A DNA stretch of 33,691 nt, from positions 1 to 33,691 of the forward strand of contig CAYHRM010000002.1 in the NCBI GenBank assembly GCA_964359035.1, given 5' to 3'. The position numbers were made by a program, and so were the translations under genes. Every line of letters begins with the position of its first letter. The first letter of the stretch is position 1. The notes under the pieces were generated by a model. The model was not told where the DNA came from and ran no database searches. It saw only the letters and a list, made by a program, of their open reading frames with translations. The stretch comes from an uncultured Planctomycetales bacterium (GTDB taxonomy: Bacteria > Omnitrophota > Gorgyraeia > Gygaellales > Profunditerraquicolaceae). This document shows, in pieces, positions 6,827 to 26,497 of the stretch.

Positions 6827-8947
6827 TTGAGTAATTTCATGATGATTATAAGAATTTTAAATCAAAAGTATAAAATATTTGTCTTGAGCCTTATTTTTTT
6901 ATTAGGCACGCTTATTTACTCTAATACTTTTTATAGCCCTTTTCATTTTGATGATATTCATTTTATAGCTAATAATTTCTTAATCAGGGATATTAGTAAT
7001 TTAAGGGGTATCTGGAATTTTTTCCCCGGCCGTTTTATTGTTTTTATTACCCTTGCTTTAAATTATCATTTCCATCAGCTCAATGTATTTGGGTATCATC
7101 TATTTAACTTGGCCATCCATTTAGGTTCGGCAATTTTAGTCTGGTGGCTGGGTATGCTTATTTTCTCTACGCCGGTAATGGAGAAGGATGGGCTTTTTAA
7201 AAATTCTAAATGGGTGGCTTTATTTGCAGCCTTGATATTTTTAGTGCATCCTTTGCAAACAGAGTCTGTCACTTATATATGGCAACGCTGCACTTCTTTG
7301 GGTGGATTTTTTTATCTTTTTTCAATTTGTTTATATATTAAGTCGAGGTTATTGTGGAGACAAAACTCTCTTTTTTCTAAACGGATAATTGTTTATGCTT
7401 TATCTTTGATTTTTGCTGCGATGAGCATGTTTACTAAGGAAAATTCCATCACTTTGCCGGCGATGATTATTTTATCTGAGTTTTGTTTTTTTAAACCGGT
7501 AAAATTTAGTAGTTGGAAATACGCAATGCCATTTTTATTTCTATTGCCTATTATACCTATAATATTATCTTTTCCTCAGCCGCAGTCATTTAATACAGGA
7601 GGGCACTATTTATTAACGCAATTTAGAGTTGTGGTCACTTATATTAGGCTTCTTTTTATACCGTTAAATCAAAATTTAGATTATGATTACCCGGTGGTTA
7701 ATAGTTTAATTAATTTGCCCGCATTAATTAGTTTTGTATTTTTAGTTGTGATTATCGTTAGCGCAATTCGGGTGTTTTATAAATATAGATTAGTTTCATT
7801 TGGAATTTTATGGTTTTTTTTAACCCTATCGCCTGACTCAAGTTTTGTGCCGCTGGATGATGTAATTTTTGAACACCGGCTTTATCTGCCTATTGTGGGA
7901 TCTAGTTTTGCTGTAGTTAGTTTTATATATTATTTTTTTAAGCATAAAACTCTCAAGTTGATGGTTGTTGCGCTGCTTGTTATAATTTCTTGTTATGCGA
8001 TGCTTACTTATAGAAGAAATTTTATTTGGAAAGATAAGATTACTTTGTTGAATGATGTAATCCGTAAGTCGCCTATGAAAGCGAGGTCTTATAATAATCG
8101 CGGGAATGCTTATAAGGAGCAAGGTAACATTCAGCAGGCCATCTCTGATTATACCAAAGGGATCGCCATTAATCCTCGTGATGCAGAGATTTATTCTAAT
8201 CGCGGTAGTGCCTATAAGGATCAAGGTAATATTCAGCAGGCCTTATCTGATTACAATAAGGCGATTGAAATCAACCCGCATTTTTTCGTAGCTTACGATA
8301 ATCGCGGGATTACCTATTATCAGCAAGGCAATTTTATTCAGGCTATTTCTAATTATAATAAAGCTATTGCTATCAACTCCGATTATGCAGGGGCATATTA
8401 CAATCGTGGTACTGCTTATGTTAAACAGGGTAATTTTGTTCAGGCCATTTCTGATTATACTAAGGCTATTGCTATTAATTCTAGATATGCAGAGGCTTAT
8501 AATAATCGCGGGAGTGCCTATAAGGATCAAGGTAATATTCAGCAGGCCTTATCTGATTACAATAAGGCGATTGAAATCAACCCGCATTTTTTCGTAGCTT
8601 ACGATAATCGCGGGATTACCTATTATCAGCAAGGCAATTTTATTCAGGCTATTTCTAATTATAATAAAGCTATTGCTATCAACTCCGATTATGCAGGGGC
8701 ATATTACAATCGTGGTACTGCTTATGTTAAACAGGGTAATTTTGTTCAGGCCATTTCTGATTATACTAAGGCTATTGCTATTAATTCTAGATACGCAGAG
8801 GCTTACAATAACCGCGGGGGTGCTTATTATGTGATAAAGGAATATGATCAGGCCTGGGTAGATGTGCATAAAGCAGAAGGATTAGGATATCTGGTTCATC
8901 CTGGATTCCTTGCAGCACTCAAGAAAGCCTCAGCTAGAGAAAAATAG
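6827..8947 (+). CDS. GT-C-fold (TMTC/PMT-like) membrane glycosyltransferase with C-terminal TPR repeats, paralog 2
   Basis: Same architecture and motifs as 4949-6817 (FHFDD, FEHRLYLP) with a longer TPR array. Start is TTG at 6827 or ATG at 6839. Confidence 0.75.
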   Translation: MSNFMMIIRILNQKYKIFVLSLIFLLGTLIYSNTFYSPFHFDDIHFIANNFLIRDISNLRGIWNFFPGRFIVFITLALNYHFHQLNVFGYHLFNLAIHLGSAILVWWLGMLIFSTPVMEKDGLFKNSKWVALFAALIFLVHPLQTESVTYIWQRCTSLGGFFYLFSICLYIKSRLLWRQNSLFSKRIIVYALSLIFAAMSMFTKENSITLPAMIILSEFCFFKPVKFSSWKYAMPFLFLLPIIPIILSFPQPQSFNTGGHYLLTQFRVVVTYIRLLFIPLNQNLDYDYPVVNSLINLPALISFVFLVVIIVSAIRVFYKYRLVSFGILWFFLTLSPDSSFVPLDDVIFEHRLYLPIVGSSFAVVSFIYYFFKHKTLKLMVVALLVIISCYAMLTYRRNFIWKDKITLLNDVIRKSPMKARSYNNRGNAYKEQGNIQQAISDYTKGIAINPRDAEIYSNRGSAYKDQGNIQQALSDYNKAIEINPHFFVAYDNRGITYYQQGNFIQAISNYNKAIAINSDYAGAYYNRGTAYVKQGNFVQAISDYTKAIAINSRYAEAYNNRGSAYKDQGNIQQALSDYNKAIEINPHFFVAYDNRGITYYQQGNFIQAISNYNKAIAINSDYAGAYYNRGTAYVKQGNFVQAISDYTKAIAINSRYAEAYNNRGGAYYVIKEYDQAWVDVHKAEGLGYLVHPGFLAALKKASAREK
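8207..8818 (+). repeat. Tandem duplication, 2 x 306 bp (three TPR units each), inside the CDS
   Basis: 8207-8512 and 8513-8818 look identical by eye except at three positions (8488/8794, 8500/8806, 8506/8812). All three differences are synonymous (Tyr, Tyr, Asn). Confidence 0.9.
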
Positions 8948-9566: not shown

Positions 9567-11387
9567 ATGAAGATAAAAAACAGGGATTGGTTTATTTTTA
9601 TTCTTTTGGCGGCTTTGTGTTTTGGGTTTTGGTTTAAGCTGGAGTACCCCCGCTTTGCTTTTGTAAATTTAACAGTTAATAAACAAAGCGCATTAACAGT
9701 ATCGGATAAATATCTTAAGGCTAGAGGGGTCGATACAAAAAAATATGTTAAGTCTATAACTTTCGGCTCAGACGCTGGTTTTAACCGGTATTTTCAGCAT
9801 GCTGCTGGTTTAAAAGCAGAAGAAGTGTTTATTGTACAACACGATTATGATTTATTTTATTGGCGGGTTAGATTATTTAAGGAGCTTCAGAAAGAAGAAT
9901 TTTTAGTTTATATCAGCCCCCGTTCAGGAAGGGTGATCAAATTCACGCATTTAATTGAAGATTTGGAACCTAGGGTGGATTTAGGTAAAGATATTGCCAA
10001 GCAAAAGGCGGCCTCATTCTTGGAGAGTAATTTTGGTATAGACTTAGAAAAGTATGATTTTCATGAGGAGAAAGTAAAGCGTTATGAAAAAAGGATAGAA
10101 TATATTTTCTCTTGGGAGAAGAAAAATATCTATATACCCTGGAAGGAAGGCCAGTGTGGAGCAAAATTGTTGACAGAGGTTACGGTATCCGGAGATGAGG
10201 TTAGGGAGTTTTATAAAAATAAATTGGAGTTGCCGGAAAAATTTATTAGGTATGCCCAGAATCAGTTTATTTTAGGGGAGTATTTTTACGGTATTTTTTT
10301 TCTTATCTTCCTTGGGCTGTTGGGGTGGTCGGTGAGTATAGTTTTAAAAAGAAAAAATGATCTGAGCACGCGGTTGGCCAAGAAGTGGTTTTATTATGTA
10401 TCTGGGTTTTTGATAATAGTTAATATAGCGGATATTTTTAATAATTTACAGAGTGTTTTTATGTTTTATCAAACTAGTGCGAGTTTGAGTTCTTTTTTTG
10501 GTTTGGTTATTACAAAATGGATATTTAGTATAGGTTTTTTGGCGCTTGGTTTTATCATGCCGGGCTTGGCTGGAGAATCTTTGCGTAGTGAAGTGTTCCC
10601 GAAAGATAAATTTAGCTCTTTTTTATATTATATTAAATCCAGTTTTTTTAACCGCGGTTTGACGCGAGCGGTTTTATTGGGTTATTTAGTTTGGGTGATA
10701 ATGCTGGGGTTACAGGCGGTTATATTTTATAATGGCCAAAAGTTTTTAGGGGTTTGGAGAGAATTTAATTCTTTAACTGATTTTTCTTCAGCTTATATAC
10801 CTCTGCTTAGTGCTTTTGTTATTGGGGTTACCGCGAGCCTTAGCGAAGAGATTACTTTTAGGCTTTTTGGAATAAGTTTAGCGAAGAAGTATTTACGAAA
10901 TTCAATTTTAGCGATTATTGTTATCTCTGTAATCTGGGGTATGGGGCATACACTATATGCTATATTCCCGGTTTGGTTTCGTATTATTGAGGTTAGCTTA
11001 CTGGGGATATTTTATGGGTTCATTTTCATGCGCTTTGGGCTCATTCCTTTAATTGTGGCGCATTATTTGTTTGATGTATTTTGGTGCAGCGCGGCTTATG
11101 TTTTAGGGCATACCACCTGGTATCTATTCTGTAATGCTATAGGATTATTGTGTATACCGTTAATTTTGGCTATAATTGCGTATTTTTTAAATGCTGGCGA
11201 GCAGGAGAAACAAATTAGTGAGTCTTTGGATAAAATACAGGAATATAATTTGGAGGTTCTGGTTAGTTTTATCTCTGCTAAGAAGTTTCAGGGAGATTCT
11301 GCTGATAACATAAAAGCAGAGCTGATTAATCATAATTGGGACCATTTATTGGTGGATTTAGCAATGGAAAGGGAATTTCATAAGTAG
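9567..11387 (+). CDS. CPBP-family (CAAX/Abi-type) intramembrane glutamic protease with a large N-terminal extracytoplasmic domain
   Basis: N-terminal TM segment, then a ~220-aa soluble domain, then a multi-TM region. CPBP motifs SEEITFRLFG (EExxxR), GMGHTLY and VAHYLFDVF. Confidence 0.75.
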   Translation: MKIKNRDWFIFILLAALCFGFWFKLEYPRFAFVNLTVNKQSALTVSDKYLKARGVDTKKYVKSITFGSDAGFNRYFQHAAGLKAEEVFIVQHDYDLFYWRVRLFKELQKEEFLVYISPRSGRVIKFTHLIEDLEPRVDLGKDIAKQKAASFLESNFGIDLEKYDFHEEKVKRYEKRIEYIFSWEKKNIYIPWKEGQCGAKLLTEVTVSGDEVREFYKNKLELPEKFIRYAQNQFILGEYFYGIFFLIFLGLLGWSVSIVLKRKNDLSTRLAKKWFYYVSGFLIIVNIADIFNNLQSVFMFYQTSASLSSFFGLVITKWIFSIGFLALGFIMPGLAGESLRSEVFPKDKFSSFLYYIKSSFFNRGLTRAVLLGYLVWVIMLGLQAVIFYNGQKFLGVWREFNSLTDFSSAYIPLLSAFVIGVTASLSEEITFRLFGISLAKKYLRNSILAIIVISVIWGMGHTLYAIFPVWFRIIEVSLLGIFYGFIFMRFGLIPLIVAHYLFDVFWCSAAYVLGHTTWYLFCNAIGLLCIPLILAIIAYFLNAGEQEKQISESLDKIQEYNLEVLVSFISAKKFQGDSADNIKAELINHNWDHLLVDLAMEREFHK

Positions 11388-11547
11388 GCCGTGATTGTAT
11401 TTTTGTAAGTTTTCATTGTGGATTGACAGTCGAATAGTTATACTACTAAGATATTGTAGTAACCAGCTTTAGCGGGGCAGAATGATTTGATGGTTTTAGA
11501 GAAGTTAGTAGTTTTTTTAAGGTTAATATAAATAAAAGGACTAAAGC

Positions 11548-12537
11548 ATGAAAAAGTTTAATAGTAATGATTATAAGGTGGTTATTTCAGAATTAGGATT
11601 TGACCCTTTCAGAATATTGAATTCTGTTTTTGTGTTAATTGGGGTAATTCCTTTGTTGGTTTTATTCTATCTCATAATTAGAGGTAATCTTTTACATAAG
11701 TTTTTCTTGGGGGATAATGGTTTTGTTGTGGCTATGGCTATAGTTATCTCACTTTTAGGGTTTTTATATGCGTATATTTTGATCAAGAATTTGCTGATGA
11801 AATTGTTGAAATATGCTCAAGAACGTAAACTCGCGGATAAAGAAAAAACGGAGATTATGTTAGCAGTTACTCATGACTTAAAGAATCCTTTGACGACAAT
11901 ACAAATTTTTATGAATAACTTGAATGCGGGGGTGGGTGGCCAATTAAGCAACTCTCATTCTGGTATAGTGAAGATTTGCTTGCTTAATGTTGAGAGGCTT
12001 TTTAAATTTATAGAGGAAATATTAAATTCTTCTAAAAATGATTTTTTAAGTTTATTTGTTAAGCGTGAATTTATCGATTTTGATCATATAATTAAGAATG
12101 AAGTGGATAATTTTATGCAGCAGGCTAAAAAAGCTAACTTGGATTTGCGGTATCGAGTTTCTTCGGGTAATACAAATTTATGGGGCGATAAAGATAAATT
12201 ATCTAGGGTGGTGATGAATCTTATTTCTAATGCCATAAAATATACTCCTGCCGGTGGCCTGGTCGATGTCTCGCTTTCTTTAGATCAAAATACGGCTATA
12301 TTTTGCGTTATAAATACCGGCCCGGGTATCACTACTGATGAAATGGAGAGATTATTTAAAAAATTCGCTCGATTGGATAAGCATGCCGAGATTGAAGGCA
12401 CTGGATTAGGCCTTTCTATCGCTAAGGATATTGTTGATTTGCATAATGGCCATATCAGTGTGAAGAGTGAACTTGGTAAAAATACAGAGTTTAAGGTAGT
12501 CTTGCCTAGTGATTTGCGTGGGAAAATCCTTAGATAA
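11548..12537 (+). CDS. Sensor histidine kinase (two TM segments, HisKA plus HATPase_c); no cognate response regulator in the window
   Basis: H-box AVTHDLKNPLTT, N-box NLISNAIKYTPAGG, G1 NTGPGI, G2 GTGLGLSIAKDIV. Confidence 0.9.
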   Translation: MKKFNSNDYKVVISELGFDPFRILNSVFVLIGVIPLLVLFYLIIRGNLLHKFFLGDNGFVVAMAIVISLLGFLYAYILIKNLLMKLLKYAQERKLADKEKTEIMLAVTHDLKNPLTTIQIFMNNLNAGVGGQLSNSHSGIVKICLLNVERLFKFIEEILNSSKNDFLSLFVKREFIDFDHIIKNEVDNFMQQAKKANLDLRYRVSSGNTNLWGDKDKLSRVVMNLISNAIKYTPAGGLVDVSLSLDQNTAIFCVINTGPGITTDEMERLFKKFARLDKHAEIEGTGLGLSIAKDIVDLHNGHISVKSELGKNTEFKVVLPSDLRGKILR

Positions 12538-12656: not shown

Positions 12657-13793
12657 ATGAATTTACCGATATTAGCTTTTAAAAATCTTTGGTATAGGAA
12701 AATGCGTACCAGCCTGACAGTATTAGGCGTGGGTACGAGTATTGCTGTTTTTGTTGCTTTAGTTGGCCTGGCAGGGATTTTTAAAGATGCATTTCAGCAG
12801 ATGTATAAGTCACGTCAAACCGATCTGGTCGTACGGGAAAAAGGAAACTTTGATTTTTTATCTAGCGGGATTGATGAGAATTATGCGGATAAGATTATGC
12901 AGATACCGGAAGTTTTAAGTATAAGTAAAATATTAATTGATTTTTCTTCAGCCGGGTCAAAAGATTATTTTTTAGTATTAGGTTGGGATCAAAACTCGAG
13001 TTTATTTTCAAAGCTAAAAATCCAAGGCAATCGTCCAGAGAGCGATGATGAGGCATTAGTTGGAGTGAATATCTCTAAGAAATTTAATAAGAAGATTAAA
13101 GATAAAATAGAGGTAAAAGGTTCTTTGCTGACGGTTGTCGGTACTTTTGAAAGTAAGAGCATGTTTGAGGAGGGCAGTGTTATTATTACGCTGGCGAAGC
13201 TTCAGAAAATTAAAAAAGTTCCCGGTAAGGTTACTTTATTTAATCTGGTGGTTAAGAAAGGTATGTTTTCAGGCGGCCAGCCGGTAAATGATAAGGACCA
13301 GGTTGAGCGCATTCGATCTTTAATTGCTCAACTGCTACCGGATACGGAAGTTAGGAGCGTAGAAGATATTGTCTCGGCGGATAATACAATGACTTCTTTT
13401 TTGAATTTTGCTTGGGCAGTATCTATCGTTGCATTTATTGCGGCCATTTTAGGGATAATTAATACAATGGTTACTTCGGTATTGGAGCAGACCAGTAAGA
13501 TTGGGATTTTGTTGGCGATTGGCTGGAGAAAGTCAAAGATTCTTTGCCTTGTTCTTTATGAATCTATATTCTTAGGCATGTTGGGAGGTGTTTTTGGTTT
13601 AATTTTAGGATATGGAATCATGAATCTCTTGGTGCATTCACCGCAATTGGAGAATATTGGCAGAGTTGATTATAATTTTATTTTTATGATTAAAGTAATT
13701 GTGGTTTCCTTAGGAGTGGGGTTTTTGTCGGGAATCTATCCAGCGATCAGGGCAATCTCGATAAAACCTATTGAGGCGCTGCGTTATGAATAA
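12657..13793 (+). CDS. ABC transporter permease, MacB/LolC/FtsX type
   Basis: N-terminal TM (LAFKNLWYRKMRTSLTVLGVGTSIAVFV), a ~220-aa periplasmic domain, and three C-terminal TM segments ending YPAIRAISIKPIEALRYE, which is typical of the FtsX-like domain. Confidence 0.85.
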   Translation: MNLPILAFKNLWYRKMRTSLTVLGVGTSIAVFVALVGLAGIFKDAFQQMYKSRQTDLVVREKGNFDFLSSGIDENYADKIMQIPEVLSISKILIDFSSAGSKDYFLVLGWDQNSSLFSKLKIQGNRPESDDEALVGVNISKKFNKKIKDKIEVKGSLLTVVGTFESKSMFEEGSVIITLAKLQKIKKVPGKVTLFNLVVKKGMFSGGQPVNDKDQVERIRSLIAQLLPDTEVRSVEDIVSADNTMTSFLNFAWAVSIVAFIAAILGIINTMVTSVLEQTSKIGILLAIGWRKSKILCLVLYESIFLGMLGGVFGLILGYGIMNLLVHSPQLENIGRVDYNFIFMIKVIVVSLGVGFLSGIYPAIRAISIKPIEALRYE

Positions 13794-14451
13794 AGAATTT
13801 TTAATCGAAACGGTTAATCTTTCAAGATATTATAAGGACGGCAAAGTCTTAGCGTTAGATAATGTCAACTTGAAGATTACTATAGGCGAGTTTTTGGCGA
13901 TTAAGGGATCTAGCGGAAGTGGAAAGTCGACCTTATTGCATTTAATCGGGGGGCTAGATCTGCCTACTACTGGAGAAATTTATTTCCAAGGCCAAACGGT
14001 TAGGGAGGTTTATAGAAAAAGAGGGTTTAGGCTTAACCATTTAGGATTTGTATTTCAAGCCTTTTATTTATGGCCGGTACTTAATGTTTTGGAAAATGTT
14101 TTATTGCCCTTAATGGAGTCTGGTTTAGGTAAGCAAAAAAAGCTTCAAAAAGCAAAAGAAATTATTAATTTAGTGGGAATGAATGATAAAATTCTCTCTT
14201 CTGTAAATAACCTTTCTATTGGACAGAGGCAAAGGGTAGCTATTGCCAGAGCTTTGGTCATGGATCCTAAACTGATATTGGCGGATGAACCGACTGGAAA
14301 TTTAGATTCAAAGAATACAGAAAATATTTTGACTCTTTTTAAAACATTGAATAAACGAAAAAATGTGACAGTGGTGATGGTTACGCATGAAGATAAGGCT
14401 TTGGTTTTTTGTGACCGTTGGATACAGTTATCCGATGGTAGAGTTCAATAA
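13786..14451 (+). CDS. ABC transporter ATP-binding protein (MacB/LolD-like)
   Basis: Walker A GSSGSGKST, signature LSIGQRQRVAIARAL, Walker B LILADEPTGNLD. The ATG at 13786 overlaps the permease stop. The ORF track starts at an upstream TTG (13771). Confidence 0.93.
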   Translation: MNKEFLIETVNLSRYYKDGKVLALDNVNLKITIGEFLAIKGSSGSGKSTLLHLIGGLDLPTTGEIYFQGQTVREVYRKRGFRLNHLGFVFQAFYLWPVLNVLENVLLPLMESGLGKQKKLQKAKEIINLVGMNDKILSSVNNLSIGQRQRVAIARALVMDPKLILADEPTGNLDSKNTENILTLFKTLNKRKNVTVVMVTHEDKALVFCDRWIQLSDGRVQ

Positions 14452-14489
14452 GCAAATAATTTAAGGCTATTCTTTAGATAGAAGAGCAA

Positions 14490-15440
14490 ATGCCAAATTT
14501 AAAAGTAATGTTTCAGGTGGCTTTATTATATTTATCTCTGAGTAAGCAAGGAAAGCGTTTTTTAAAAAAAGTTGTTAGAGAGTCCCGCCGGGTAGATAAA
14601 ACATTAGGTAGTGCCATTGTATTAGACCTGCATAAAATTCTATATTTTATTAAGACGCTTAAGGTTTGCGATAAAGTATTTAGTGCTCAGGTATCAGATC
14701 AGTTGTGTTCTGACCTTGGGCGGGAAAAATCTGCGATGTATGCCAGATTTGTATCGTATGGGTGGTTTAGCCTGCTAATCTGGGGTAAGATGCTTGATGC
14801 ATTTAATCTGGCCCATGATGATAGGGCAAAGGAGCGTTGTGTTCTGGTTGCTTTTACGCATCGAGAATGGAATGATCTTTTTGACAACCAGGGATATTCT
14901 TTTAGTGAGTTAGTTGCGGCTTTTGATTATCAGGTAGCGATACCTAAAGAGTTGATTTTTTTAAGGCAACTTAAACAGATGGAGCTTAAGCTTGCTCCTG
15001 CGGATCGCTTTGGTAAATATTATCAGCATTTGCAGGGATTTGATGTTTGCAGCCTTTTTGAATACACGCCGGAAAAAGCTCAGATAATTTTAGATCAGGT
15101 CGCTCCGTTTGTGGCGTTGCTCTTTATGTATATTATGGTTGAGGAAATACCCGAGGGATTAAAAGAGGCGGTTAAGCCAGTGGCGAGATGGTTATACATG
15201 TTGGATGAATTAGCGGATTTAGAGCATGATAAACAGATAAACCGCTTAACTTATATGATTATGGTTAAGAATCCTGAAGAGGTAATGTGGCAGCAATACC
15301 AGGAGTGCTGCAAGGCGTTATTGCATAACGCTCCCAACCCGGATAAATTAATTAAATTTATGGAGATAATTACATCTAGGGTCGTTGAGGCAAAAAAATG
15401 TGGAGCAAATATTGAGAATAGTTTATTTAATATTGGTTGA
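14490..15440 (+). CDS. Squalene/phytoene-synthase-like (class 1 isoprenoid enzyme fold) protein, paralog A, with a degenerate first Asp-rich motif
   Basis: 316 aa, all-helical in appearance. Motifs WNDLFDN (NDxxD) and LDELADLEHDKQINRLTY (DxxxD...R..Y). Paralogous to 17921-18877 (shared LYLSLS..GK+ N-terminus and RC(V/I)L(V/I)AF). The family assignment is from motif memory only. Confidence 0.5.
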   Translation: MPNLKVMFQVALLYLSLSKQGKRFLKKVVRESRRVDKTLGSAIVLDLHKILYFIKTLKVCDKVFSAQVSDQLCSDLGREKSAMYARFVSYGWFSLLIWGKMLDAFNLAHDDRAKERCVLVAFTHREWNDLFDNQGYSFSELVAAFDYQVAIPKELIFLRQLKQMELKLAPADRFGKYYQHLQGFDVCSLFEYTPEKAQIILDQVAPFVALLFMYIMVEEIPEGLKEAVKPVARWLYMLDELADLEHDKQINRLTYMIMVKNPEEVMWQQYQECCKALLHNAPNPDKLIKFMEIITSRVVEAKKCGANIENSLFNIG

Positions 15441-15469
15441 TCGGTTTAAAAATTGGAGTGTTGCTGTTG

Positions 15470-16678
15470 ATGAAAAATAAAAAGAAGAATAAATTGATTC
15501 CGGAATTATCTGAATTATTAAAAAAACAATTCCCGCAGGAATTGGCATTGAATAAGAGCGGGTTAAGGATGCTTGCCGATGATCATATAGCACAACAACA
15601 ATTTTTAGCCCAGATGGTTAAAATTATAGCGATGATTTCTAACTCATATTTTAGAGCTGGTTTTTTTCGCGCTTATCTTAGAATTTATGCGCAGCAGATT
15701 AATAAAGATGGCCGGCATGGATCGGTAATTATGGAGATTACTAAACATTGTAATCAGCAATGCCAACATTGTTATTCTCGGGCTCAGCGTAAGAAAAGTA
15801 TGAAGGTAAAAACAATTAATCAAATAGTGAAGTTAGTGCGGAATAGTTATAAGCATATTTTTATTACCGGTGGAGAGCCGACTTTGGATAAACGTGTTTT
15901 TACTATTGCTCAGGCCAATCCGGATATTATGTTTTTTATGTTTACTAATGGTGGAGCGATTGACCAGGCATATGCGGCTAAACTTTTAAAAGTAGGGAAT
16001 CTTATCCCAATTTTAAGTGTTGACGGAGTTTCGCAAAAACAGCACGATTATTTTAAAGGAAAAGGCAGCTGGCGGCGTTTGATGTGGGCAATTAAAGTAT
16101 TAAATGCCGCTGGGATACCCTGGGGCTATTTATCGATGGTTACAAACATCAATGCTCGCGAGGTTTTGAGTAAAAAATTTGTTAAAGCGATGAAACAAAA
16201 AGGCGCAATTCTTGCCAGGTATTTGGAATTTATCCCGGTGGGTCCGCAAGCTGCTCCGGAGTTGGTGCCTTCGGCAGAAACTTACTATCTGATGGAAAAA
16301 AGAAAGCAGCAGATAATCAAAAATAATGAAATATATATGCAGGAGACGGTGCAAAAGAAATGTTTAGGCCTGATATTCTTTGATGTTGATGGAAATATAA
16401 AATGCTGTCCATTTTTTCATTATTCTAAGCATAATGTTGCTCAAGGAAATATTGAAAGATTGATAAAAGATTCTACTGCAGATTGGTGTCGGGCTAAATA
16501 TCTTGGGGAATGTCCGGTTTATTCTGATGCGGAAGGATTTAAAGGGCATCTTTTAAGACAGTTTTGGAAGCCGACTAGTTCATTTAATCAGGAAAATTCA
16601 ATCACTGCGCAGTTAGCTAAAACGATGTCTAATAACTATCAGTCCTTTTTAAAAATTAAAGCTGCTCGAGGTCTCTAA
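15470..16678 (+). CDS. Radical SAM protein with a reduced C-terminal Cys-rich (twitch/SPASM-like) domain and a ~90-aa N-terminal extension
   Basis: CNQQCQHC (Cx3Cx2C), IFITGGEPTL, FTNGG, SVDG..QKQHDYFKGKGSW. C-terminal Cys pattern: C-x17-CC-x28-C-x8-C (KKCLGLIFFDVDGNIKCC ... WCRAKYLGECP). ATG at 15470 has GGAG 11 nt upstream. The ORF track starts at TTG 15437. Confidence 0.85.
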   Translation: MKNKKKNKLIPELSELLKKQFPQELALNKSGLRMLADDHIAQQQFLAQMVKIIAMISNSYFRAGFFRAYLRIYAQQINKDGRHGSVIMEITKHCNQQCQHCYSRAQRKKSMKVKTINQIVKLVRNSYKHIFITGGEPTLDKRVFTIAQANPDIMFFMFTNGGAIDQAYAAKLLKVGNLIPILSVDGVSQKQHDYFKGKGSWRRLMWAIKVLNAAGIPWGYLSMVTNINAREVLSKKFVKAMKQKGAILARYLEFIPVGPQAAPELVPSAETYYLMEKRKQQIIKNNEIYMQETVQKKCLGLIFFDVDGNIKCCPFFHYSKHNVAQGNIERLIKDSTADWCRAKYLGECPVYSDAEGFKGHLLRQFWKPTSSFNQENSITAQLAKTMSNNYQSFLKIKAARGL

Positions 16679-17919
16679 TGGAAAAACTAGCTCTTCCTAG
16701 CCGCATCACTCCTTGGGGAATATCTAAAACTGTCGGTAATACCTTGAGCGTGAATAAGAAATCTTTAGTTAGATATGTGGAGTTTAATATTACTGGCAGA
16801 TGCCAGGCAGGTTGTATTACCTGCCCGACTCCGTTGGCCTATTCTGATGAAAAAATACTTAAGACCATTAATGATCTTATTCGTGAATTTAAACTTTTTC
16901 GGCAATTCTTTACTAAATTAAAAAAATTAGGCATGGAATTTGTAACTATTTATGGCCGGGAACCCACGCTTTGGGATAAAGAAGCGCCGGAGCCAAATAA
17001 GTTTCTTAAAAACATGATCTCCTGGTTAAGTAAGGATTTAGGGGTCAGGGTTTGTTTAGCTACTTCTGGGATTTCTTTAGATGAATCTGTTTTAAAGGTT
17101 TTATTTGATAATCAGGGTGTGTTATTTATGAAAGATTGGGGGAGTAAAGAGTCTGTGGAGAAATTGATTAAAAATAAAAGTGCTTATAAAAAAATTCGCC
17201 AAAGTTGGAATTTAGTAAAAAATTTAAGTAAACGTTATAAGAAGGTTAGGGTGGTAGCTGAATTTTTATATACGGGTATTAATCGTAGGGATCTTTTAGC
17301 ATTTTGGAGAGGTTGTTACAAAAATGGATTTTTACCTTTTGTGGAAGCTCCGGTGATCAAGGGTAGTTGCGCTAAAAATTATAAACAATTAAATATTTGT
17401 CCAGAGAGATATGTGAGAGATATATATGAACTTTCTCTTTTAAATTTATCTTTGATCTATGGATTAAGTAAAAAGCAAGTTCGGCAAACGGATATCTGGC
17501 AGCCGCCTTATGGTAGTGTTTTTCCTTCTGTTTGTGATAAATTAACTTATGCTAAGGGGGTATTTTTGGAGAGGAACGGCCAGCTTAGTGTTTGTTGCGG
17601 AGTAGATCAACGGTTGGGGAATATAAATGATCAGAATATTAAACGTAAACTGCAGGATAATCTATTACTTAAGCGGATTCGTTTGGTTTATGAGAATTTA
17701 AAAGGATTTTGTAGCGATTGTGATTATAGTAAAAAATTTCATCTTTGTTATGGTTGTCGAGGTAATGGCTATACTTATCAGAGTAGTAGCCAGGGTGTGT
17801 TCGGCCAAGACCCGATGTGTTTTGGTAAGATAGCGTTAGAGTTAGCGATAAAAGGCAAACTAAATAAATTTATGAGTAAGAATCATGTTCAGAAAATACT
17901 TGATTATTTTAAGAATTAA
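16678..17919 (+). CDS. Radical SAM/SPASM domain protein
   Basis: CQAGCITC (Cx3Cx2C). C-terminal SPASM-like pattern SVCCGVDQRLGNINDQ...GFCSDCDYSKKFHLCYGCRGNGY. Its ATG overlaps the TAA of the preceding gene by 1 nt. Confidence 0.85.
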   Translation: MEKLALPSRITPWGISKTVGNTLSVNKKSLVRYVEFNITGRCQAGCITCPTPLAYSDEKILKTINDLIREFKLFRQFFTKLKKLGMEFVTIYGREPTLWDKEAPEPNKFLKNMISWLSKDLGVRVCLATSGISLDESVLKVLFDNQGVLFMKDWGSKESVEKLIKNKSAYKKIRQSWNLVKNLSKRYKKVRVVAEFLYTGINRRDLLAFWRGCYKNGFLPFVEAPVIKGSCAKNYKQLNICPERYVRDIYELSLLNLSLIYGLSKKQVRQTDIWQPPYGSVFPSVCDKLTYAKGVFLERNGQLSVCCGVDQRLGNINDQNIKRKLQDNLLLKRIRLVYENLKGFCSDCDYSKKFHLCYGCRGNGYTYQSSSQGVFGQDPMCFGKIALELAIKGKLNKFMSKNHVQKILDYFKN

Positions 17920-17920
17920 G

Positions 17921-18877
17921 ATGATGCTAGAGATGATTAAAATTTTTGGGTTATATTTATCATTATCCGGTAACGGGAAAAAACTGTTTAGACGTTTAGC
18001 TAGAATGTTAAATGACGCGCGGAATCTGCCGCATTATCGAAAGCTAATGGCAACTATTAGTGATACGATGAGCGCTGATAAGCAGAGGTGGTTTTCTTGT
18101 ATTCGGGCTAGTGATGCAGGATTTAAAGAATTTATACCGAACTGGTACATTGCTGGATCTAAAATTAAGCCGGAGCAACTATACTATCGTTTTTTTAAAA
18201 TGGGAGCTGTTCTTTTGTATGAACATACTAGTTTATTTTTAGCGTATAACATATCCGTTGATGCAAAAGCGAAAAGAAGATGTATTCTTATTGCCTTTCT
18301 AAAACGGGTATATGATGACCTGTTGGATAATGAACATATCGATAAGGGGGCCTTATTTGATCTTCAGCCGAATAAAGATTTACTGGGCAATGCGGATTAT
18401 CGGTTGTTTTTAGATTTAAGAAAAAAAATTAGAAAAATAGCTCCACCGGAGGAGTTCGTAAATTATTACGCTAGGCTTAAGGAAGTAAGTGATGCTCAGG
18501 GAGCATCGGCTGTTGGAGGGGGCATAAAAAATAACATTCCTTATAAAATTAAGAATGGTTTTCTTTTGGATATGTATATTATGATGAATAATCTTCCGGA
18601 GGGGATTATCCGGGCTTTGGATATTACTGCCGAGTTTTTTGCCTACCTGGATGATTTTTATGATTATGATGAAGATTTAGTTAAAGGTAAGATTACTTAT
18701 ATTAATCAAAGCCGGGATCCTCAAGTGGCCCTGGAAATAAAATATGAAGAGGCGGTTGTGTATTTGCGAGGCAATAGCCCCAATCCTGATGGATACCTAA
18801 AAGGGGTGGGGAATTTAATGAAGAATGTACTTTTTACGCGGGAAAATAAATTAAATAAATTGTCGTTATTTATTTAA
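17921..18877 (+). CDS. Squalene/phytoene-synthase-like (class 1 isoprenoid enzyme fold) protein, paralog B, with both Asp-rich motifs intact
   Basis: Motifs YDDLLDN (DDxxD) and LDDFYDYDEDLVKGKITY, which resembles the CrtM/PSY second motif D..ED....R.Y. The ATG at 17921 is 1 nt after the preceding stop and aligns with the N-terminus of paralog A. The ORF track starts at 17885. Confidence 0.55.
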   Translation: MMLEMIKIFGLYLSLSGNGKKLFRRLARMLNDARNLPHYRKLMATISDTMSADKQRWFSCIRASDAGFKEFIPNWYIAGSKIKPEQLYYRFFKMGAVLLYEHTSLFLAYNISVDAKAKRRCILIAFLKRVYDDLLDNEHIDKGALFDLQPNKDLLGNADYRLFLDLRKKIRKIAPPEEFVNYYARLKEVSDAQGASAVGGGIKNNIPYKIKNGFLLDMYIMMNNLPEGIIRALDITAEFFAYLDDFYDYDEDLVKGKITYINQSRDPQVALEIKYEEAVVYLRGNSPNPDGYLKGVGNLMKNVLFTRENKLNKLSLFI

Positions 18878-18986: not shown

Positions 18987-19391
18987 ATGGAAGAGAGCCA
19001 GAGCGATCAAAATCGGCGCAAATCTGAACGTTTGGACACGGCATTTACTCTTATTTATCAGCTAGAGAAGCCGCTGGCCTTAGGCATTCAGATGGGTTTT
19101 ACTAGTGATATTGACGCTCTAATGCTTAATTTAAGTGATTTGGGGATGGCGATTGTCACAAAATATGATTTGCCTTTAGGAATACAATTGAATATTAAAT
19201 TTAATATTATTGATTTACGTTTACAAGGTGAGGCGCGTCGGAGGCAGATGGAGATTACCGGTGAGACTGTTTCTAATACTATTTTGCTAAATTCAAGCCA
19301 TAGAATAGGTATACGGTTTAATAAGATTTCAGATCTAGACAAATTGGCAATAAGTAATTTTGTAAAGCACAATAAGTTGCCCTCGGTTTGA
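18987..19391 (+). CDS. Stand-alone PilZ domain protein
   Basis: RRKSER (RxxxR) and NLSDLG ((D/N)xSxxG) motifs. 134 aa. Confidence 0.75.
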   Translation: MEESQSDQNRRKSERLDTAFTLIYQLEKPLALGIQMGFTSDIDALMLNLSDLGMAIVTKYDLPLGIQLNIKFNIIDLRLQGEARRRQMEITGETVSNTILLNSSHRIGIRFNKISDLDKLAISNFVKHNKLPSV

Positions 19392-19405: not shown

Positions 19406-19428
19406 CGCTCTTGACAGAGTGTTTTTTT
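19406..19428 (+). terminator. Candidate intrinsic terminator
   Basis: CGCTCT-tgac-AGAGTG stem (6 bp including one G-U pair) followed by T7, 15 nt after the PilZ stop. Confidence 0.4.
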
Positions 19429-19533: not shown

Positions 19534-19986
19534 ATGACTGGTATTTCGATTACTGATTTTGCTCAAAAGATGGACCAGATTATGCCTGAGATTATGAAGG
19601 GGTTTGCTCGCAGGCAGAATAATGATGTATTTAAAGGTAAGATTACTTTGCCACAGTTACTTATTTTGGGGTGGTTAAGCCATCAGGGTGCATCTAAAAT
19701 GACAGATTTAGCTAAGTTTATGAAGGTGACTACTGCCGCCTCTACGGGGATTGTGCAGCGGCTTGTACTTTTAGGTTATGTGCAAAGAGAATATGACCAG
19801 AGCGATCGTAGGATAATTAGAATTAAGCTTAGCGTTAAAGGAGCGGAAGTTTTAAAAAAAATAAACCAGCAGCGCACACAGTCGGTGACTAAAATCTTTG
19901 GACAACTATCGCAAGATGACCGCGGAGAATATTTGCGTATACTTATGCAGGTAAAAGATATTTTAGATAAAGAAGAAGGTAAATAA
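19534..19986 (+). CDS. MarR-family transcriptional regulator
   Basis: 150 aa. Winged-HTH pattern LLILGWLSHQGASKMTDLAKFMKVTTAASTGIVQRLVLLGYVQREYDQSDRRIIRIKLSVKG. Confidence 0.85.
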   Translation: MTGISITDFAQKMDQIMPEIMKGFARRQNNDVFKGKITLPQLLILGWLSHQGASKMTDLAKFMKVTTAASTGIVQRLVLLGYVQREYDQSDRRIIRIKLSVKGAEVLKKINQQRTQSVTKIFGQLSQDDRGEYLRILMQVKDILDKEEGK

Positions 19987-21263
19987 TGAAGCGGCTTATT
20001 TTAGTAGTGTTATTCATTAGCTTAGTTACTATTGCCGTGCACGCCGAAGAAGTTCCACTTACTTTTGATGAAGCGGTGGCAATCGGTTTAAGGGATAACC
20101 GTGATTTTTTACTTAAAACAGAGGATGTTGTAAGAGCTAAGTCTGTAATTGCCCAGGCTCAAGCGGGAATCTTTCCTACGCTCGATTTAACCTATAATTG
20201 GTTTTATACTGCTGGCCTTTACACCACAAATTTGAGTGAGCACACGACGCAAATTAGTTTAAGGCAATATCTTTATCGAGGATGAAGGGTTATAAATAGT
20301 ATAAAATATAGTGAATATAAATTGGAGGTAACACAATCAATTTTAGATAAAGTAAAGCTAGAGATGATTTTTGACCTTTCTCGAGCTTATTATACACTGT
20401 CACTTGCAAATTCCTTTGTGCAATTAAATAAAGAGATACTTGATAATAGCCAGCAGCATTTAGATTATATTAATGCACTTTATAAAAATGGCCAGGCTTC
20501 AGAAACTGACATCTTGCAGGCGCAGGCGGCTTTATCTAGTGTACAACAGGCGTATGAAGCTTCTAAAACACAAGTTGAGGCGGCGCGGGCTTTGTTGAAT
20601 AATCTATTATTTTTAGATAAGGATGTTTTGATTGTACCGATTACAGAATTTAAATATACGCCTAAAGATGTGGCTTTTGAGCAAGGTTTTTTAAAAGCTA
20701 TTCAAACTCGCCCAGAGATAAGACAATTTGAGGCACAGCTAAAGGCGGATAAAAGTGCTATTGAGGTGGCTCGCGCAGGAGGCCGGCCGGAAATTTATGC
20801 CGCTTGGGATTATTATGCACGCACACATGGAGCTCCGACTACGACCGTAAATACTAGAAATTGGAACGATTATAATGTTGCGGGGATCACTTTATCTTGG
20901 CCGATCTTTGATGGATGGAAAACTAAGGCTTTGGTGGAGCAGGCGATTGTTGATCTAAAGCAGACGCAGCTAGATAAAGATAAATTTTTTGGAGATATCG
21001 CTCTAGAGGTTAAAAACGCATATTTATCTTTAAAGGATTCAATTGAACAAATAAAAACAAGCCAGGTGGATATTTTACTTTATAAGAATAATCTTTCTAC
21101 GGCAAAAGACAGATATGCTCAAGGATTAGTTAGTACATTAGGTAATAACGACGCGCAGTTAAAATATGCCGTTTCGGTTTTTAACCAACAGCAGGCAGTG
21201 TATGATTATGCTATTGCTAAGTTTAGCTTTGATAAGGCCACAGGAGGTTTCAATGGGATATAA
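19986..21263 (+). pseudogene. TolC-family outer-membrane efflux protein interrupted by an in-frame TGA (20283-20285)
   Basis: ORFs 19986-20285 and 20322-21263 are in the same frame. Read-through gives a continuous OEP-like sequence (...LRQYLYRG*RVINSIKYSEYKLEVTQ...). Signal peptide at the N-terminus. Confidence 0.7.
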
Positions 21264-21301
21264 AAGAATATTATTATGCACGCTGTGGTCAGGTAAGCGG
21301 A

Positions 21302-22633
21302 GTGGGTAGAATGATGGGTGGAGCCAGCGGCACACATGTAATTTCTGCCGGAGCAAAACTTATTGCTAAAGATCAAAGGAAGCGCTCAGTGAAAGAAGTA
21401 GGCCAGGCAATAAGGAATAAGATTAAGCTTATTCCAGGAGTATTAAGGACAGATGTTTCTACAGGGAATCCTTTGGGTAATTTAATTACCGGAGGCGGTG
21501 GTAAAGCGGTGCAGTTAGAAATTATCGGGAATTCTTTTGAGGACACTAATGCTTTAGCGCAGAAAATAAAATTAATTATGGAAAAAACTCCTGGAGCAGT
21601 AGATGTGAGTATTTCGCGCGAAGCCAATAGCCCGGAGTTAAAGATCGACGTGGATCGGGAGAAGGCGGCTAGTTTAGGATTGGATATGAGTACCATTGCG
21701 ACTACTCTAAAATCTTTTATTCAGGGAACGACGGCGACGAAGTATCGCGAAAAAGGTAAGACCTATGATATTTATGTGCGGCTGGAAGAATTTTCGCGCA
21801 CAAAATTAGAAGACATTGAAAATTTAACAATTATGGCGCCATTGCCTGCGGATAATGCTCCTTTTGTGGGAATAGAAAATCTAGCGAGTAGGCAAGGAGT
21901 AAGCCGGACACAGATTAAATTAAGTAATATTGCTAAGATTTATGAAACTAGCGGCCCGGATAAAATTGAACGTAAGAACCGGGAAAGAATGGTGAGGGTA
22001 TAGTGCAATGTTTATAAACGTTCTACGGGAAAGGTGGTAGAGGATTTAAATAGAGAGACCAGTAAGCTGGTATTGCCGGCAAATGTTTCCATTAATATCG
22101 GCGGAGAAGCGGAAGAGCAGAAAAAAGCTTTTGGTGATCTGACGCTTTTGCTTATTTTGGGTATCGGGTTGGTATATATGGTTATGGCGGCGCAGTTTGA
22201 ATCGCTGCTAGATCCTTTTATTATTATGTTTGCCATACCTTTTACTTTTATTGGTGTAATTTTAGGTTTTGTTTTAACCGGAACAACTTTAAGTATTAAT
22301 ACTTTCTTGGGGATTGTTATGTTGATGGGTATAGTGGTAAATAACGCTATTGTTTTGGTGAGCTATATTATTATGTTGCGGGCGCGAGGATATTCTATGC
22401 AGGAAGCGGTAACCATAGGAGGCAAGGATCGTTTACGTCCGATACTGATGACAACGATTACGACGATTGCCGGGCTTTTACCTTTGGCGCTTTCTCGCGG
22501 TGAAGGTTCTGAAGTTTGGCAGCCACTAGGCATTACGATGATCGGGGGTTTAAGTGTTTCTACTTTAGTTACTTTATTGTTTGTTCCTACGCTTTATGCG
22601 GTGTTTCACAGGAAATCAGCTTTACCGGGGTAA
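21302..22633 (+). pseudogene. 3' remnant (~444 codons) of an RND (AcrB/HAE1-type) efflux pump gene with an in-frame TAG (22001-22003)
   Basis: The two same-frame ORFs match the C-terminal periplasmic and TM8-12 part of RND pumps (FESLLDPFIIMFAIPFTFIG, DRLRPILMTTITTIAGLLPLAL). The N-terminal ~55-60% of the pump and the adaptor gene are absent. Confidence 0.75.
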
Positions 22634-23608: not shown

Positions 23609-24055
23609 ATGGAAAGAAGATTAAAAAAAGGTTTTGTTTTGATCGAGGTGCTCTTGGCAACAGCGATTGCGGCATTTGCCATATGCGGTATATTGTTTAT
23701 GTATATCGCGGGAATGGATTTAATTAGAACTTCAAAAAATGCCAGTATTGCTACAAGCGCAGCCCAAGGATTAATCGAAGAAATTCGTAATACCTCATTC
23801 CCAGATATTGTTACCACTTATAATCTTTTGAGATTTTCAGTTAATGGTATTGCCTCTAGCAGTGGCATAGTTTACGTTAATGATACGGATCCGGAATTTT
23901 TGTTGGTAACGATTAGTATATGCTGGCGCCAAGGCAATCGGGTTATTGGAGAAGATATAAATCTTAATGGCGCGTTGGATGTCGGAGAGGATGCCAATGG
24001 CAATGGGATCATTGATTCAACTGTGGAGTTAGTCACGCAAGTGGCTAACCGATAA
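23609..24055 (+). CDS. Prepilin-type N-terminal domain pseudopilin (minor pilin) with two EF-hand/dockerin-like Ca-binding loops
   Basis: Class III signal KKG|FVLIEVLLATAIAAF (Glu at +5). C-terminal DINLNGALD and DANGNGIID loops. Confidence 0.8.
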   Translation: MERRLKKGFVLIEVLLATAIAAFAICGILFMYIAGMDLIRTSKNASIATSAAQGLIEEIRNTSFPDIVTTYNLLRFSVNGIASSSGIVYVNDTDPEFLLVTISICWRQGNRVIGEDINLNGALDVGEDANGNGIIDSTVELVTQVANR

Positions 24056-24058
24056 AAG

Positions 24059-24577
24059 ATGAAGGGCTTAACGTTATTTGAGGTTTTAGTTTCGATATTA
24101 ATTTTTTCGATTATTGCGCTGGGTTTAAGTTCAGCGATAGTTGTCGGAAAAAATGCTTTGTTTGTTAGTGATATTCCTACTCAGCTTAGGCAAAATGTAT
24201 TATTTGCGCTTATGCCGATGGCTCGGGAGCTACGTCAAACTGCTCCGGCTAAAATAAATTTGAGTGAAGGTACATCTAGTAGCACAATTACTTTTAAAAT
24301 TCCGCATGATAATAATGCTGATGGCGTGGTTGTAGATAACGTCGGTAGCGTAGAATGGGGTAGCGATATTACTTATGTGCGTGATGGTTTGAATCAGCTT
24401 ACGCGTACTCAAGATGGCGTAACTAAAGTAATTGCGCCAAATGTTACCACTTTACAGTTTAGCCGGCCAGTTGGCGAAGATGCGTTGATACAAATTGATC
24501 TCACAGTTTCTAAAACCGATGGCCAGGGAAACTTGTATCAGGATTCAGAGCAGGCGGTTATAAAAATGAGGAATTAA
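24059..24577 (+). CDS. Prepilin-type pseudopilin (GspJ/PulJ-like minor pilin)
   Basis: MKG|LTLFEVLVSILIFSIIALG N-terminus. 172 aa. 3-nt gap from the previous gene. Confidence 0.8.
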   Translation: MKGLTLFEVLVSILIFSIIALGLSSAIVVGKNALFVSDIPTQLRQNVLFALMPMARELRQTAPAKINLSEGTSSSTITFKIPHDNNADGVVVDNVGSVEWGSDITYVRDGLNQLTRTQDGVTKVIAPNVTTLQFSRPVGEDALIQIDLTVSKTDGQGNLYQDSEQAVIKMRN

Positions 24578-24578
24578 G

Positions 24579-26336: not shown

Positions 26337-26400
26337 ATAAAAGGAATAAAGTGACGAATAAAGTGACCGTTTCTATTTTTTTGCTCACGGTTAGTAAATT

Positions 26401-26478: not shown

Positions 26479-26497
26479 AATAAGGTTAGGAGAAACA

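Follow-up and report, generated by a model that had tools for sequence, protein, structure and literature searches.

Enzymes of the class I isoprenoid-synthase superfamily share an alpha-helical fold with two aspartate-rich motifs, and in the heteromeric prenyl synthases (HepS/HepT, HexA/HexB and the small and large subunits of plant GPPS) a catalytic copy is paired with a degenerate or non-catalytic partner. Paralog pairs also occur among the squalene and phytoene synthases (SQS/PSY) of the same structural superfamily, as in HpnC/HpnD. ComQ is a prenyl-synthase-fold enzyme that acts on a peptide. MacB-type extractors handle lipids and lipoproteins (Lol, DevCA), and the MacB-type HrtBA extracts haem from membranes. 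Lipid tailoring by radical S-adenosylmethionine (SAM) enzymes of SPASM or twitch architecture is represented by Tes/GDGT-MAS, Hbs/Gms, GrsA/B, Mss and HpnH; the lipid bridge synthases Hbs and Gms are AhbD-like, carry an N-terminal lipid-pocket extension of about 100 aa and form carbon–carbon bonds in membrane lipids, and Hbs homologs have been reported in Omnitrophota (10.1101/2023.10.20.563219). Here we describe a locus in which two radical SAM genes stand between two genes for paralogous helical proteins, on a contig of an uncultured bacterium labelled Planctomycetales and placed in Omnitrophota by GTDB (assembly GCA_964359035.1, contig CAYHRM010000002.1, positions 1 to 33,691; this stretch of 33,691 nucleotides is referred to below as the window).

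A sequence-only reading of the window had singled out the four genes at 14490-18877, encoding two SQS/PSY-like paralogs (A and B) and two radical SAM enzymes (RS1 and RS2), as a candidate isoprenoid-lipid system. Our analysis extends this cassette by an ATP-binding cassette (ABC) transporter pair, moves the paralogs away from SQS/PSY and towards the trans-prenyl diphosphate synthases, and leaves an isoprenoid pathway as the explanation that we tentatively favor. The order of the genes, the extent to which other loci keep it, the motifs, the folds and the purifying selection are established, and it is from these that we infer all of the functions discussed below. We rate the cassette as a combination of known kinds, in which a class I prenyl-fold enzyme and a MacB-type extractor are joined to radical SAM tailoring, around a new protein family that is invisible to hidden Markov models (HMMs).

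A conserved six-gene unit

Paralog A (14490-15440, 316 aa), RS1 (15470-16678, 402 aa), RS2 (16678-17919, 413 aa) and paralog B (17921-18877, 318 aa) all lie on the forward strand, and the list of open reading frames (ORFs) and a direct reading of the sequence agree with the boundaries first described, namely 29 nt between A and RS1, a 1-nt overlap (TAATG) between RS1 and RS2 and a 1-nt gap between RS2 and B. The length of RS1 is counted from an ATG with GGAG 11 nt upstream; alternative starts are a TTG at 15437 for RS1 and an ATG at 17885 for B. While the four genes are real, the four-gene extent proposed for the cassette proved incomplete. Directly upstream of A, on the same strand, are a MacB/LolCE-type (type VII) ABC permease (12657-13793, 378 aa; Pfam MacB_PCD plus FtsX) and an ABC ATPase (13786-14451, 221 aa; Pfam ABC_tran) whose ATG overlaps the permease stop and which has an alternative TTG at 13771. 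This MacB-type pair belongs to the conserved unit, which therefore starts at 12657, not 14490, and comprises six genes, permease-ATPase-A-RS1-RS2-B, at 12657-18877.

The gene order was found again on more than 20 contigs, and the full order from permease to B is present in most Omnitrophota loci, including the one whose A homolog has diverged most (42% identity). Purifying selection acts on all six genes, with ratios of nonsynonymous to synonymous polymorphism (pN/pS) of 0.10-0.45 and synonymous sites near saturation. Given the recurrence of the order on so many contigs and these pN/pS values, the arrangement has not arisen by chance. A scan for promoters and terminators returned counts at background level.

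The unit is rare. A profile search of 1.84 billion representative proteins returned 53 A/B-type clusters at E <= 1e-3, 31 of them at E <= 1e-30. The RS2 family comprises 67 clusters. With one genome taken per species, 185,579 species yielded 12 loci, nine labelled Omnitrophota or Omnitrophica and one each labelled 'Planctomycetales', Lentisphaerae and Aminicenantes. All named homologs are annotated as 'hypothetical protein' or 'radical SAM protein' and come from Candidatus Omnitrophota, for which a 2026 preprint reports 176 complete genomes (10.64898/2026.06.07.730766). The plasmid collection held no relative of RS2 or B, and literature searches found no description of the cassette.

Variation between loci (identified by L numbers, or by the P number of an A/B relative) indicates which parts of the unit are most constant. 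The Lentisphaerae contig is rearranged, with RS2-B forward and A-ATPase-permease on the opposite strand, and the genes are still together. L036, L038 and the P0169 locus keep RS1-RS2-B but have no paralog A, L031 (963-2941) has two tandem copies of A, and L017, L019 and L020 have RS1-RS2 without A or B. Of the first 16 loci, 8 have the permease upstream of A, as do L015, L028, L031-L033, L042 and the P0082 locus; in the L018/L106 lineage the ABC pair is replaced by a 618-aa radical SAM gene co-directional with A. B follows RS2 in every orthologous locus. From these variants RS1-RS2 emerges as the invariant pair, with B as its usual partner and A and the ABC pair as frequent accessories; the core triad RS1-RS2-B is compact, at about 3.4 kb. 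The flanks vary more: the histidine kinase and CPBP protease upstream of the unit in the window are not kept in other loci, and the downstream MarR/TolC/RND module is common to only a subset of them. The contigs of the most distant A/B relatives (P0119, P0122 and P0129) are too short for informative context. About 60 distant SPASM loci from metagenomes (20-27% identity to RS2) lack RS1, A and B and were set aside as another family, and P0081, which comes from a 1.4-kb contig and joins a family 2 glycosyltransferase (GT2) domain to the C-terminal half of A, was discarded as a probable chimera.

Fold, putative active site and family of the flanking paralogs

The AlphaFold2 model of B, built from an alignment of 50 sequences, is confident and all-helical (predicted local distance difference test, pLDDT, 89.4; predicted template-modeling (TM) score, pTM, 0.88). 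Its top 50 Foldseek matches in the PDB consist entirely of trans-prenyl diphosphate synthases (FPPS, GGPPS/CrtE, octaprenyl diphosphate synthase and similar enzymes), with E values of 8e-4 to 1.3e-2, probabilities of 0.99-1.00 and about 290 aligned columns, and no SQS/PSY chain is among them. The model thus points, as the sequence-only reading had anticipated, to a class I isoprenoid-synthase fold, with the head-to-tail synthases as its nearest relatives; the assignment is weak, but completely one-sided.

The combination that defines class I, an alpha-helical fold with two DDxxD motifs on facing helices, is present in the model. Both motifs of B are intact, as DDxxD at 132-136 (DDLLD) and DDxxDxxxD...GKxT at 244-259 (DDFYDYDED at 244-252), and helices 115-136 and 227-247 carry them at their C-terminal ends, which we take to be the canonical DDxxD positions. 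The sequence does contain the motif pairs originally noticed, B having YDDLLDN and DDFYDYDEDLVKGKITY and A having WNDLFDN and DELADLEHDKQINRLTY; they are kept family-wide, and the two Asp-rich motifs stay invariant even among the most distant relatives. In an alignment reaching relatives only 16-20% identical, D132, D136, D244, D248, D252 and T259 never vary, and R90, D133, K209 and D245 hardly ever do. This pattern of conserved residues is, on the alignment, the signature of a putative metal–diphosphate site, and B also retains the predicted diphosphate-binding basic residues K93, K128, R129, R167, R171, K209, K211, K257 and K274. No GGKRxR-type motif for binding isopentenyl diphosphate was recognized in B by eye.

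A and B are true paralogs, with 26% identity over about 300 aa (E = 5e-28). Paralog A retains the acidic core (N128-D129-x-x-D132, D239/D243/D247) together with T254, and has lost the counterparts of K93, K128, Q193, K209, K211 and K274 of B. Its core helix 197-218, the counterpart of the K-x-K-N-G helix of B, is strongly hydrophobic, and A evolves slightly faster than B. With this selective loss of basic pocket residues A looks like a degenerate copy of B, which supports the earlier suggestion that it may be a non-catalytic partner. A presumed catalytic subunit, B, accompanied by a pocket-shaping accessory, A, would fit the arrangement seen in heteromeric prenyl synthases.

The assignment of the paralogs to SQS/PSY, by contrast, did not survive. 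The SQS_PSY model (PF00494) matches neither A nor B, nor any of 50 family members, at E <= 1, the structural neighbors are head-to-tail enzymes, and no SQS/PSY chain appears in the top 50 or in the PDB sequence searches; on these grounds we rejected membership. The likeness that prompted the assignment is real at the level of pattern, R-x-x-D-D-x-x-D and D-x-x-E-D-x-x-x-G-(K/R)-x-x-Y in A/B presumably resembling the two SQS/PSY motifs, yet it fails every family-level test; as Asp-rich motifs are common to the whole class I superfamily, they do not discriminate in favor of SQS/PSY. The locus further differs from SQS/PSY systems in having no HpnE, squalene-hopene cyclase or desaturase nearby.

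The only sequence family detected for A/B is the uncharacterized DUF5685 (PF18937), which one paper mentions, in a list only, and which A matches at E = 2.4e-4 and 21 bits, under the gathering score of 26.7. B matches neither this nor any other sequence model; 24 of the 50 A/B members touch DUF5685 at E <= 1 (best E = 2.9e-6), and two A orthologs carry a precomputed PF18937 match. The polyprenyl_synt model (PF00348) matches none of the 50; weak matches are confined to two remote family members, P0120 (E = 8.5e-4, 19 bits) and P0129 (E = 8.5e-3), against a gathering score of 27. Alignment of the A/B profile with one true polyprenyl synthase by hhalign was not significant (probability 0.14) and set DDFYD...DLVKGKITY on DDIHG...DIAEGKWTY with a 10-residue deletion, the motif register agreeing. 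Sequence and profile searches of the PDB gave no useful relative of A or B. A PDB sequence match of B to Kiwa KwaB (E = 0.005) was judged spurious, since a PADLOC scan was empty for A, B and RS2; the PADLOC pVip matches of RS1 reflect generic radical SAM similarity.

With the trans-prenyl synthases B shares the all-helical fold in which helices end in the two DDxxD motifs, a 'K..G' motif (YKIKNGF in B, KTGAL in the synthases) on the helix between them and D-L-x-x-G-K-x-T after the second DDxxD. It differs in a deletion of about 10 residues between the second DDxxD and GKxT, in its silence toward polyprenyl_synt, in lacking a recognizable GGKRxR, in a query-normalized TM score of 0.51 at best and in its constant linkage to two radical SAM genes. 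In our reading, A/B is a branch of the prenyl synthase superfamily that has diverged very far.

The radical SAM enzymes and the ABC pair

The earlier description of both middle genes as radical SAM enzymes, and of RS2 as carrying a full SPASM set, is upheld by Pfam, by the cysteine sets, which are as described and kept in orthologs, and by the RS2 model. RS1 matches Pfam Radical_SAM at 72 bits and has Cys 94/98/101 together with five C-terminal cysteines (298, 312, 313, 340 and 348); Cys 94/98/101 and 298/313/348 are invariant, and 312 and 340 are conserved in at least 90%. As RS1 has only these five and no SPASM match, it is twitch-like at most. Across 11 orthologs RS1 has no SPASM and no PqqD or RiPP recognition element (RRE) match, RiPP denoting a peptide that is made on ribosomes and modified after translation, and an N-terminal extension of about 85 aa without a Pfam match. 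A profile search of the PDB placed RS1 nearest SkfB (5.7e-12), followed by anSME (2e-7) and GDGT-MAS (1.8e-5).

RS2 is more divergent, falling just under the Pfam thresholds for Radical_SAM (28.2 bits; gathering score 29.5) and SPASM (17.1 bits; 21.5). Its cysteine motif (42/46/49), with some 30 residues ahead of it, is followed by a SPASM set at 286, 306, 307, 345, 348, 357, 360 and 381, and across 35 RS2 homologs Cys 42/46/49, 286, 306, 345, 348, 357, 360 and 381 are invariant. Searches of the PDB by sequence and profile gave no match to RS2, whereas Foldseek with its AlphaFold2 model (pLDDT 92.7) returned SkfB, anSME, CteB, ChlB, SuiB and EpeE, with E values of 1e-9 to 1e-8 and TM scores of about 0.55; GDGT-MAS is absent from the top 50 of these matches. 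RS1 and RS2 share generic radical SAM similarity only. Taken together, the motifs and the model identify RS1 as a probable twitch-like radical SAM enzyme and RS2 as a predicted full, divergent SPASM enzyme.

Neither enzyme falls within a characterized family, as neither reaches any curated NCBIfam cut-off, including those of AhbC/AhbD, NirJ, anSME, PqqE, MftC, Tes, SkfB, ScmE/F, HxsC, GeoRSP and ACGX. The best model for RS1 is NirJ2 (63.6 bits against a cut-off of 500), followed by AhbD and NirJ, the cut-offs of the matched models ranging from 175 to 725; for RS2 it is AhbD (28.9 bits; cut-off 500). With the lipid-tailoring radical SAM enzymes the pair shares the SPASM/twitch architecture and, as proposed here, radical carbon–carbon bond formation on hydrophobic chains, and with the AhbD-like members RS1 further shares an N-terminal extension and weak similarity to the AhbD/NirJ models and to GDGT-MAS. 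The differences are that the NCBIfam equivalogs are not approached (about 64 bits), that the RS1 extension has no Pfam match and that no tes, mss or ether-lipid genes are nearby. Hbs and Gms serve as a useful precedent for RS1 and RS2, without implying that these belong to the same family.

The permease has four transmembrane-like segments (18-47, 244-277, 294-327 and 337-365) and a periplasmic domain, and the pair shows the full make-up of MacB/Lol-type (type VII) systems: an FtsX four-segment permease, a MacB periplasmic core and a separate ABC ATPase. Permease matches to the NCBIfam models for MacB, LolCE and ADOP are all under their cut-offs. The ATPase is best matched by LolD (213 bits; cut-off 308), DarD (188 bits; cut-off 375) and a bacteriocin-export ABC model (185 bits), with FtsE and DevA also among the best matches, every one of them under its cut-off. 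The equivalog cut-offs of LolCDE, MacB, DarD and DevA were thus not reached by the pair; no membrane fusion protein adjoins it, it has no C39 domain, and the conserved unit contains no peptidase.

Proposed pathway, alternatives and surrounding genes

The explanation that we prefer, with confidence somewhat short of even, is that B, together with A, uses a prenyl diphosphate, that RS1 and RS2 tailor the product, and that the MacB-type pair extracts it to the envelope. The unit at 12657-18877 would then be one operon for a small-molecule pathway, and not a peptide pathway, that begins from a prenyl diphosphate. B would bind an allylic prenyl diphosphate through Mg2+ on its two Asp-rich motifs and through the conserved Lys and Arg residues, and would ionize it to give a non-standard prenyl product, with A as a partner that is non-catalytic or shapes the pocket, in the manner of the small subunit in heteromeric prenyl synthases, and that some lineages dispense with. 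RS1, with one predicted auxiliary Fe–S cluster and a helical N-terminal extension, and RS2, whose SPASM domain would hold two auxiliary clusters, would act after B, their 5'-deoxyadenosyl radicals attacking unactivated C–H bonds of the hydrophobic product so as to crosslink, cyclize or otherwise tailor it, a chemistry modeled on that of Tes, Hbs/Gms and Grs on lipid tails. The MacB-type pair would finally extract the tailored product to the envelope. In favor of this explanation are the fold and the invariant motifs of B, the weak polyprenyl_synt matches of remote relatives, the losses in A, the absence of the usual RiPP parts, the Hbs/Gms precedent, the handling of lipids by other MacB-type extractors and two isoprenoid-related neighbors elsewhere, a CrtC-lipocalin/polyprenyl-synthase fusion beside the A-like gene of L016 and MenD beside RS1-RS2 in L019. 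The broader proposal, that Omnitrophota and a few other anaerobic lineages make a new class of isoprenoid lipid or terpenoid with a skeleton from B and A, carbon–carbon crosslinks or rings from the radical SAM enzymes and MacB-type placement in the outer envelope, seems to us doubtful as yet.

A number of observations weigh against the isoprenoid pathway, and several of them speak for an alternative in which RS1 and RS2 install crosslinks or other radical modifications on a ribosomal peptide. The fold match of B is weak (query-normalized TM score 0.27-0.51, mostly around 0.45; rmsd about 8 Å or more), no isoprenoid-family sequence model is significant on A or B, and Pfam found no other isoprenoid gene among 34 of the window's ORFs of at least 90 aa. 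The one locus in which such a gene stands beside A, L016 of Aminicenantes (805-4048), has an A-like gene next to a 761-aa CrtC-lipocalin/polyprenyl-synthase fusion with an overlap of about 50 nt; the fusion gene is convergent with the A-like gene, and this is a single case. The solved structures nearest RS2 are peptide and protein maturases, and the best for RS1 is SkfB; this ranking is biased, solved SPASM structures being mostly peptide maturases, and cannot settle the substrate class. The ATPase scores on the darobactin and bacteriocin exporter models nearly equal its LolD score. In L018 the 618-aa radical SAM gene lying with A (5751-8603) has a B12-binding domain and reaches 446 bits, above the cut-off of 282, with the model TIGR03975 ('RiPP maturation radical SAM C-methyltransferase'); its counterpart in L106 (1027-3875) was recognized by its position and its length of 618 aa. 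In L019 (1139-6633) RS1-RS2 is followed by a ScmF-like SPASM enzyme (337 bits; cut-off 400), and in L017 two Nif11-leader peptides whose conserved core contains Cys are encoded 6.5 kb from RS1-RS2. The structures nearest RS1 and RS2, the ATPase scores and these neighbors are the grounds for a RiPP pathway with its precursor elsewhere in the genome, B (with A) acting as a ComQ-like prenylation enzyme, for which ComQ would be the precedent, or the helical pair as a non-canonical recognition scaffold, and with DarBCD-like export. Like the SPASM RiPP clusters with MacB-type exporters (darobactin darABCDE, sactipeptide, ranthipeptide), the unit combines a SPASM enzyme with a MacB-type ABC pair and a DarD-like ATPase; the differences are that the conserved unit has no precursor, RRE, membrane fusion protein or leader peptidase and that its scores on the maturase models are far under the cut-offs.

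We consider such a peptide pathway unlikely, if the most serious of the alternatives. No ORF of at least 60 aa resembling a peptide substrate lies inside or adjoining the cassette, and no adjacent precursor is conserved across the loci compared: clustering of small ORFs (25-200 aa, within 4 kb of the cassette, 14 loci) returned only out-of-frame gene shadows and a pair of small membrane proteins, the DNA that follows B is not conserved, and no Nif11-like ORF occurs in the window or the other loci searched for one, L017 excepted. There the RS1-RS2 pair is flanked by insertion sequences (IS), lacks A and B and is separated from the Nif11 genes by unrelated genes on both strands, and the peptides may represent an unrelated RiPP cluster or the missing substrate type. 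PqqD and RRE domains were likewise not matched in RS1, RS2, A or B. However, maturases independent of an RRE exist, so that the missing RRE and peptidase lower the probability of a peptide substrate without deciding against it, and Nif11/NHLP-type precursors are often encoded far from their maturases, which makes the missing nearby precursor weak evidence. The initial claim that this is not a RiPP locus therefore holds as far as an adjoining precursor is concerned, while the negation itself is unproven in view of the RiPP-type neighbors in L018/L106, L019 and L017 and the peptide maturases nearest RS2. Modification of a protein (as by anSME or QhpD) or of a tetrapyrrole or quinone cofactor (AhbC/AhbD, NirJ, MqnC/E), with A and B supplying or attaching a prenyl tail and the ABC pair handling a lipophilic cofactor, would agree with NirJ2, AhbD, NirJ and AhbC as best NCBIfam models of the two enzymes, with anSME among the closest structures, with MenD directly downstream of the pair in L019 and, by analogy, with HrtBA; it is nevertheless improbable, as the cofactor-family scores are 5- to 10-fold under the cut-offs, the window ORFs scanned include neither tetrapyrrole nor quinone genes, the MenD linkage was seen once and 12 loci in 185,579 species are far too few for a core cofactor pathway. 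More improbable still, in our judgment, is that A and B are non-enzymatic helical proteins with a superficial likeness of fold, for example substrates, chaperones or immunity proteins for the radical SAM enzymes. The low TM scores, the lack of a significant terpenoid-family HMM and a layout (A-RS1, RS2-B) permitting one-to-one pairing would suit such a role, but all top 50 structural matches fall in one enzyme superfamily, the residues invariant down to 16% identity are two acidic motifs plus Lys, Arg and Thr, a pattern of an active site and not of a scaffold, and there is no conserved Cys-, Ser- or Gly-rich target segment, B having only two cysteines.

If the isoprenoid pathway is correct, A and B would constitute a new HMM-invisible enzyme family in the class I terpenoid-synthase superfamily and a new pairing of a class I-fold family with radical SAM chemistry. 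The locus would also be a candidate source of unusual lipids, and perhaps of sedimentary biomarkers, in a phylum that is uncultured and widespread in the environment; on the broader proposal, its chemistry would parallel in bacteria what radical SAM enzymes do to the membrane lipids of archaea. It corresponds to no hopanoid (HpnCDE plus SHC) or carotenoid (CrtEBI) cluster, in keeping with the sequence-only reading, as the same 34 ORFs contain no squalene-hopene cyclase, HpnE/CrtI-type oxidoreductase or polyprenyl synthase. If instead the substrate is a peptide, the locus would represent an unusual pathway with prenyl-synthase-fold proteins and without an RRE.

Several related loci carry further genes near the cassette. 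The two small membrane proteins found by ORF clustering are sm52 (about 52 aa, 'LVGYIFYxEFxADSxEPFFKKY', for example L014:7036-7191) and TM105 (about 105 aa with two transmembrane helices, 'MEEWxFFD...NIYxFHEWCL', for example L014:7476-7802), which lie just upstream of the cassette in six to seven Omnitrophota loci (L006-L014), with or without the ABC pair. They were rejected as precursors, being membrane-anchored, without a Cys/Gly/Ser-rich core and absent from the window, L003, L005 and L015. The tandem Nif11 peptides of L017 (17772-18370, on a 7.6-Mb contig) have a 13-aa core, xRGxCxxGYAPLY, after AAGGG and adjoin a Peptidase_C11 gene. The best NCBIfam model for the L016 fusion is an encapsulin cargo polyprenyl transferase, under its cut-off. 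In L020 (2-11994) RS1-RS2 is followed by citramalate synthase, LeuCD/LeuB-like proteins, an acyl-CoA ligase, an iron-type alcohol dehydrogenase (Fe-ADH), an acetolactate-synthase-like thiamine pyrophosphate (TPP) enzyme and an acyl carrier protein (ACP); the TPP enzymes of L019 and L020 were dismissed as a shared neighbor, as MenD and the acetolactate-synthase-like enzyme are not orthologs. Downstream of the cassette in L003 (11006-20852) is a lipid/aryl-polyene-like cluster with a ketosynthase, an ACP, an acyltransferase, an AMP-ligase, a radical SAM/SPASM protein with an ApeP-like domain, LolA and MMPL.

In the window itself, the cassette is directly preceded by a 606-aa multi-transmembrane CPBP/Rce1-like intramembrane protease and a histidine kinase (9567-12537). 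A PilZ-domain protein (18987-19391) comes straight after B and is followed by a terminator-like hairpin (19406-19421); another PilZ-domain protein lies at 3888-4259, close to a bacterial START-domain (lipid-binding) protein at 3030-3671. The efflux module after MarR (19986-22633) looks broken. Its TolC-like outer membrane efflux protein (OEP) is split (19986-20285 and 20322-21263), directly after it come two fragments of AcrB, limited to profile positions 621-816 and 835-1021, and both a membrane fusion protein and the N-terminal 620 aa of AcrB are missing, whereas L007 has an intact 1066-aa gene of the resistance-nodulation-division (RND) type; either a deletion or pseudogene, or an assembly collapse, would account for this. 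At 23609-28401, a series of small genes carrying prepilin-type N-terminal methylation motifs, together with a DUF4900 protein, resembles a pseudopilin or type IV pilus-like cluster, homologs of which lie downstream in L008, L009 and L011. Towards the end of the window are a tRNA-Arg (ACG) at 32982-33057 and a second tRNA (33611-33691) that is cut by the window end.

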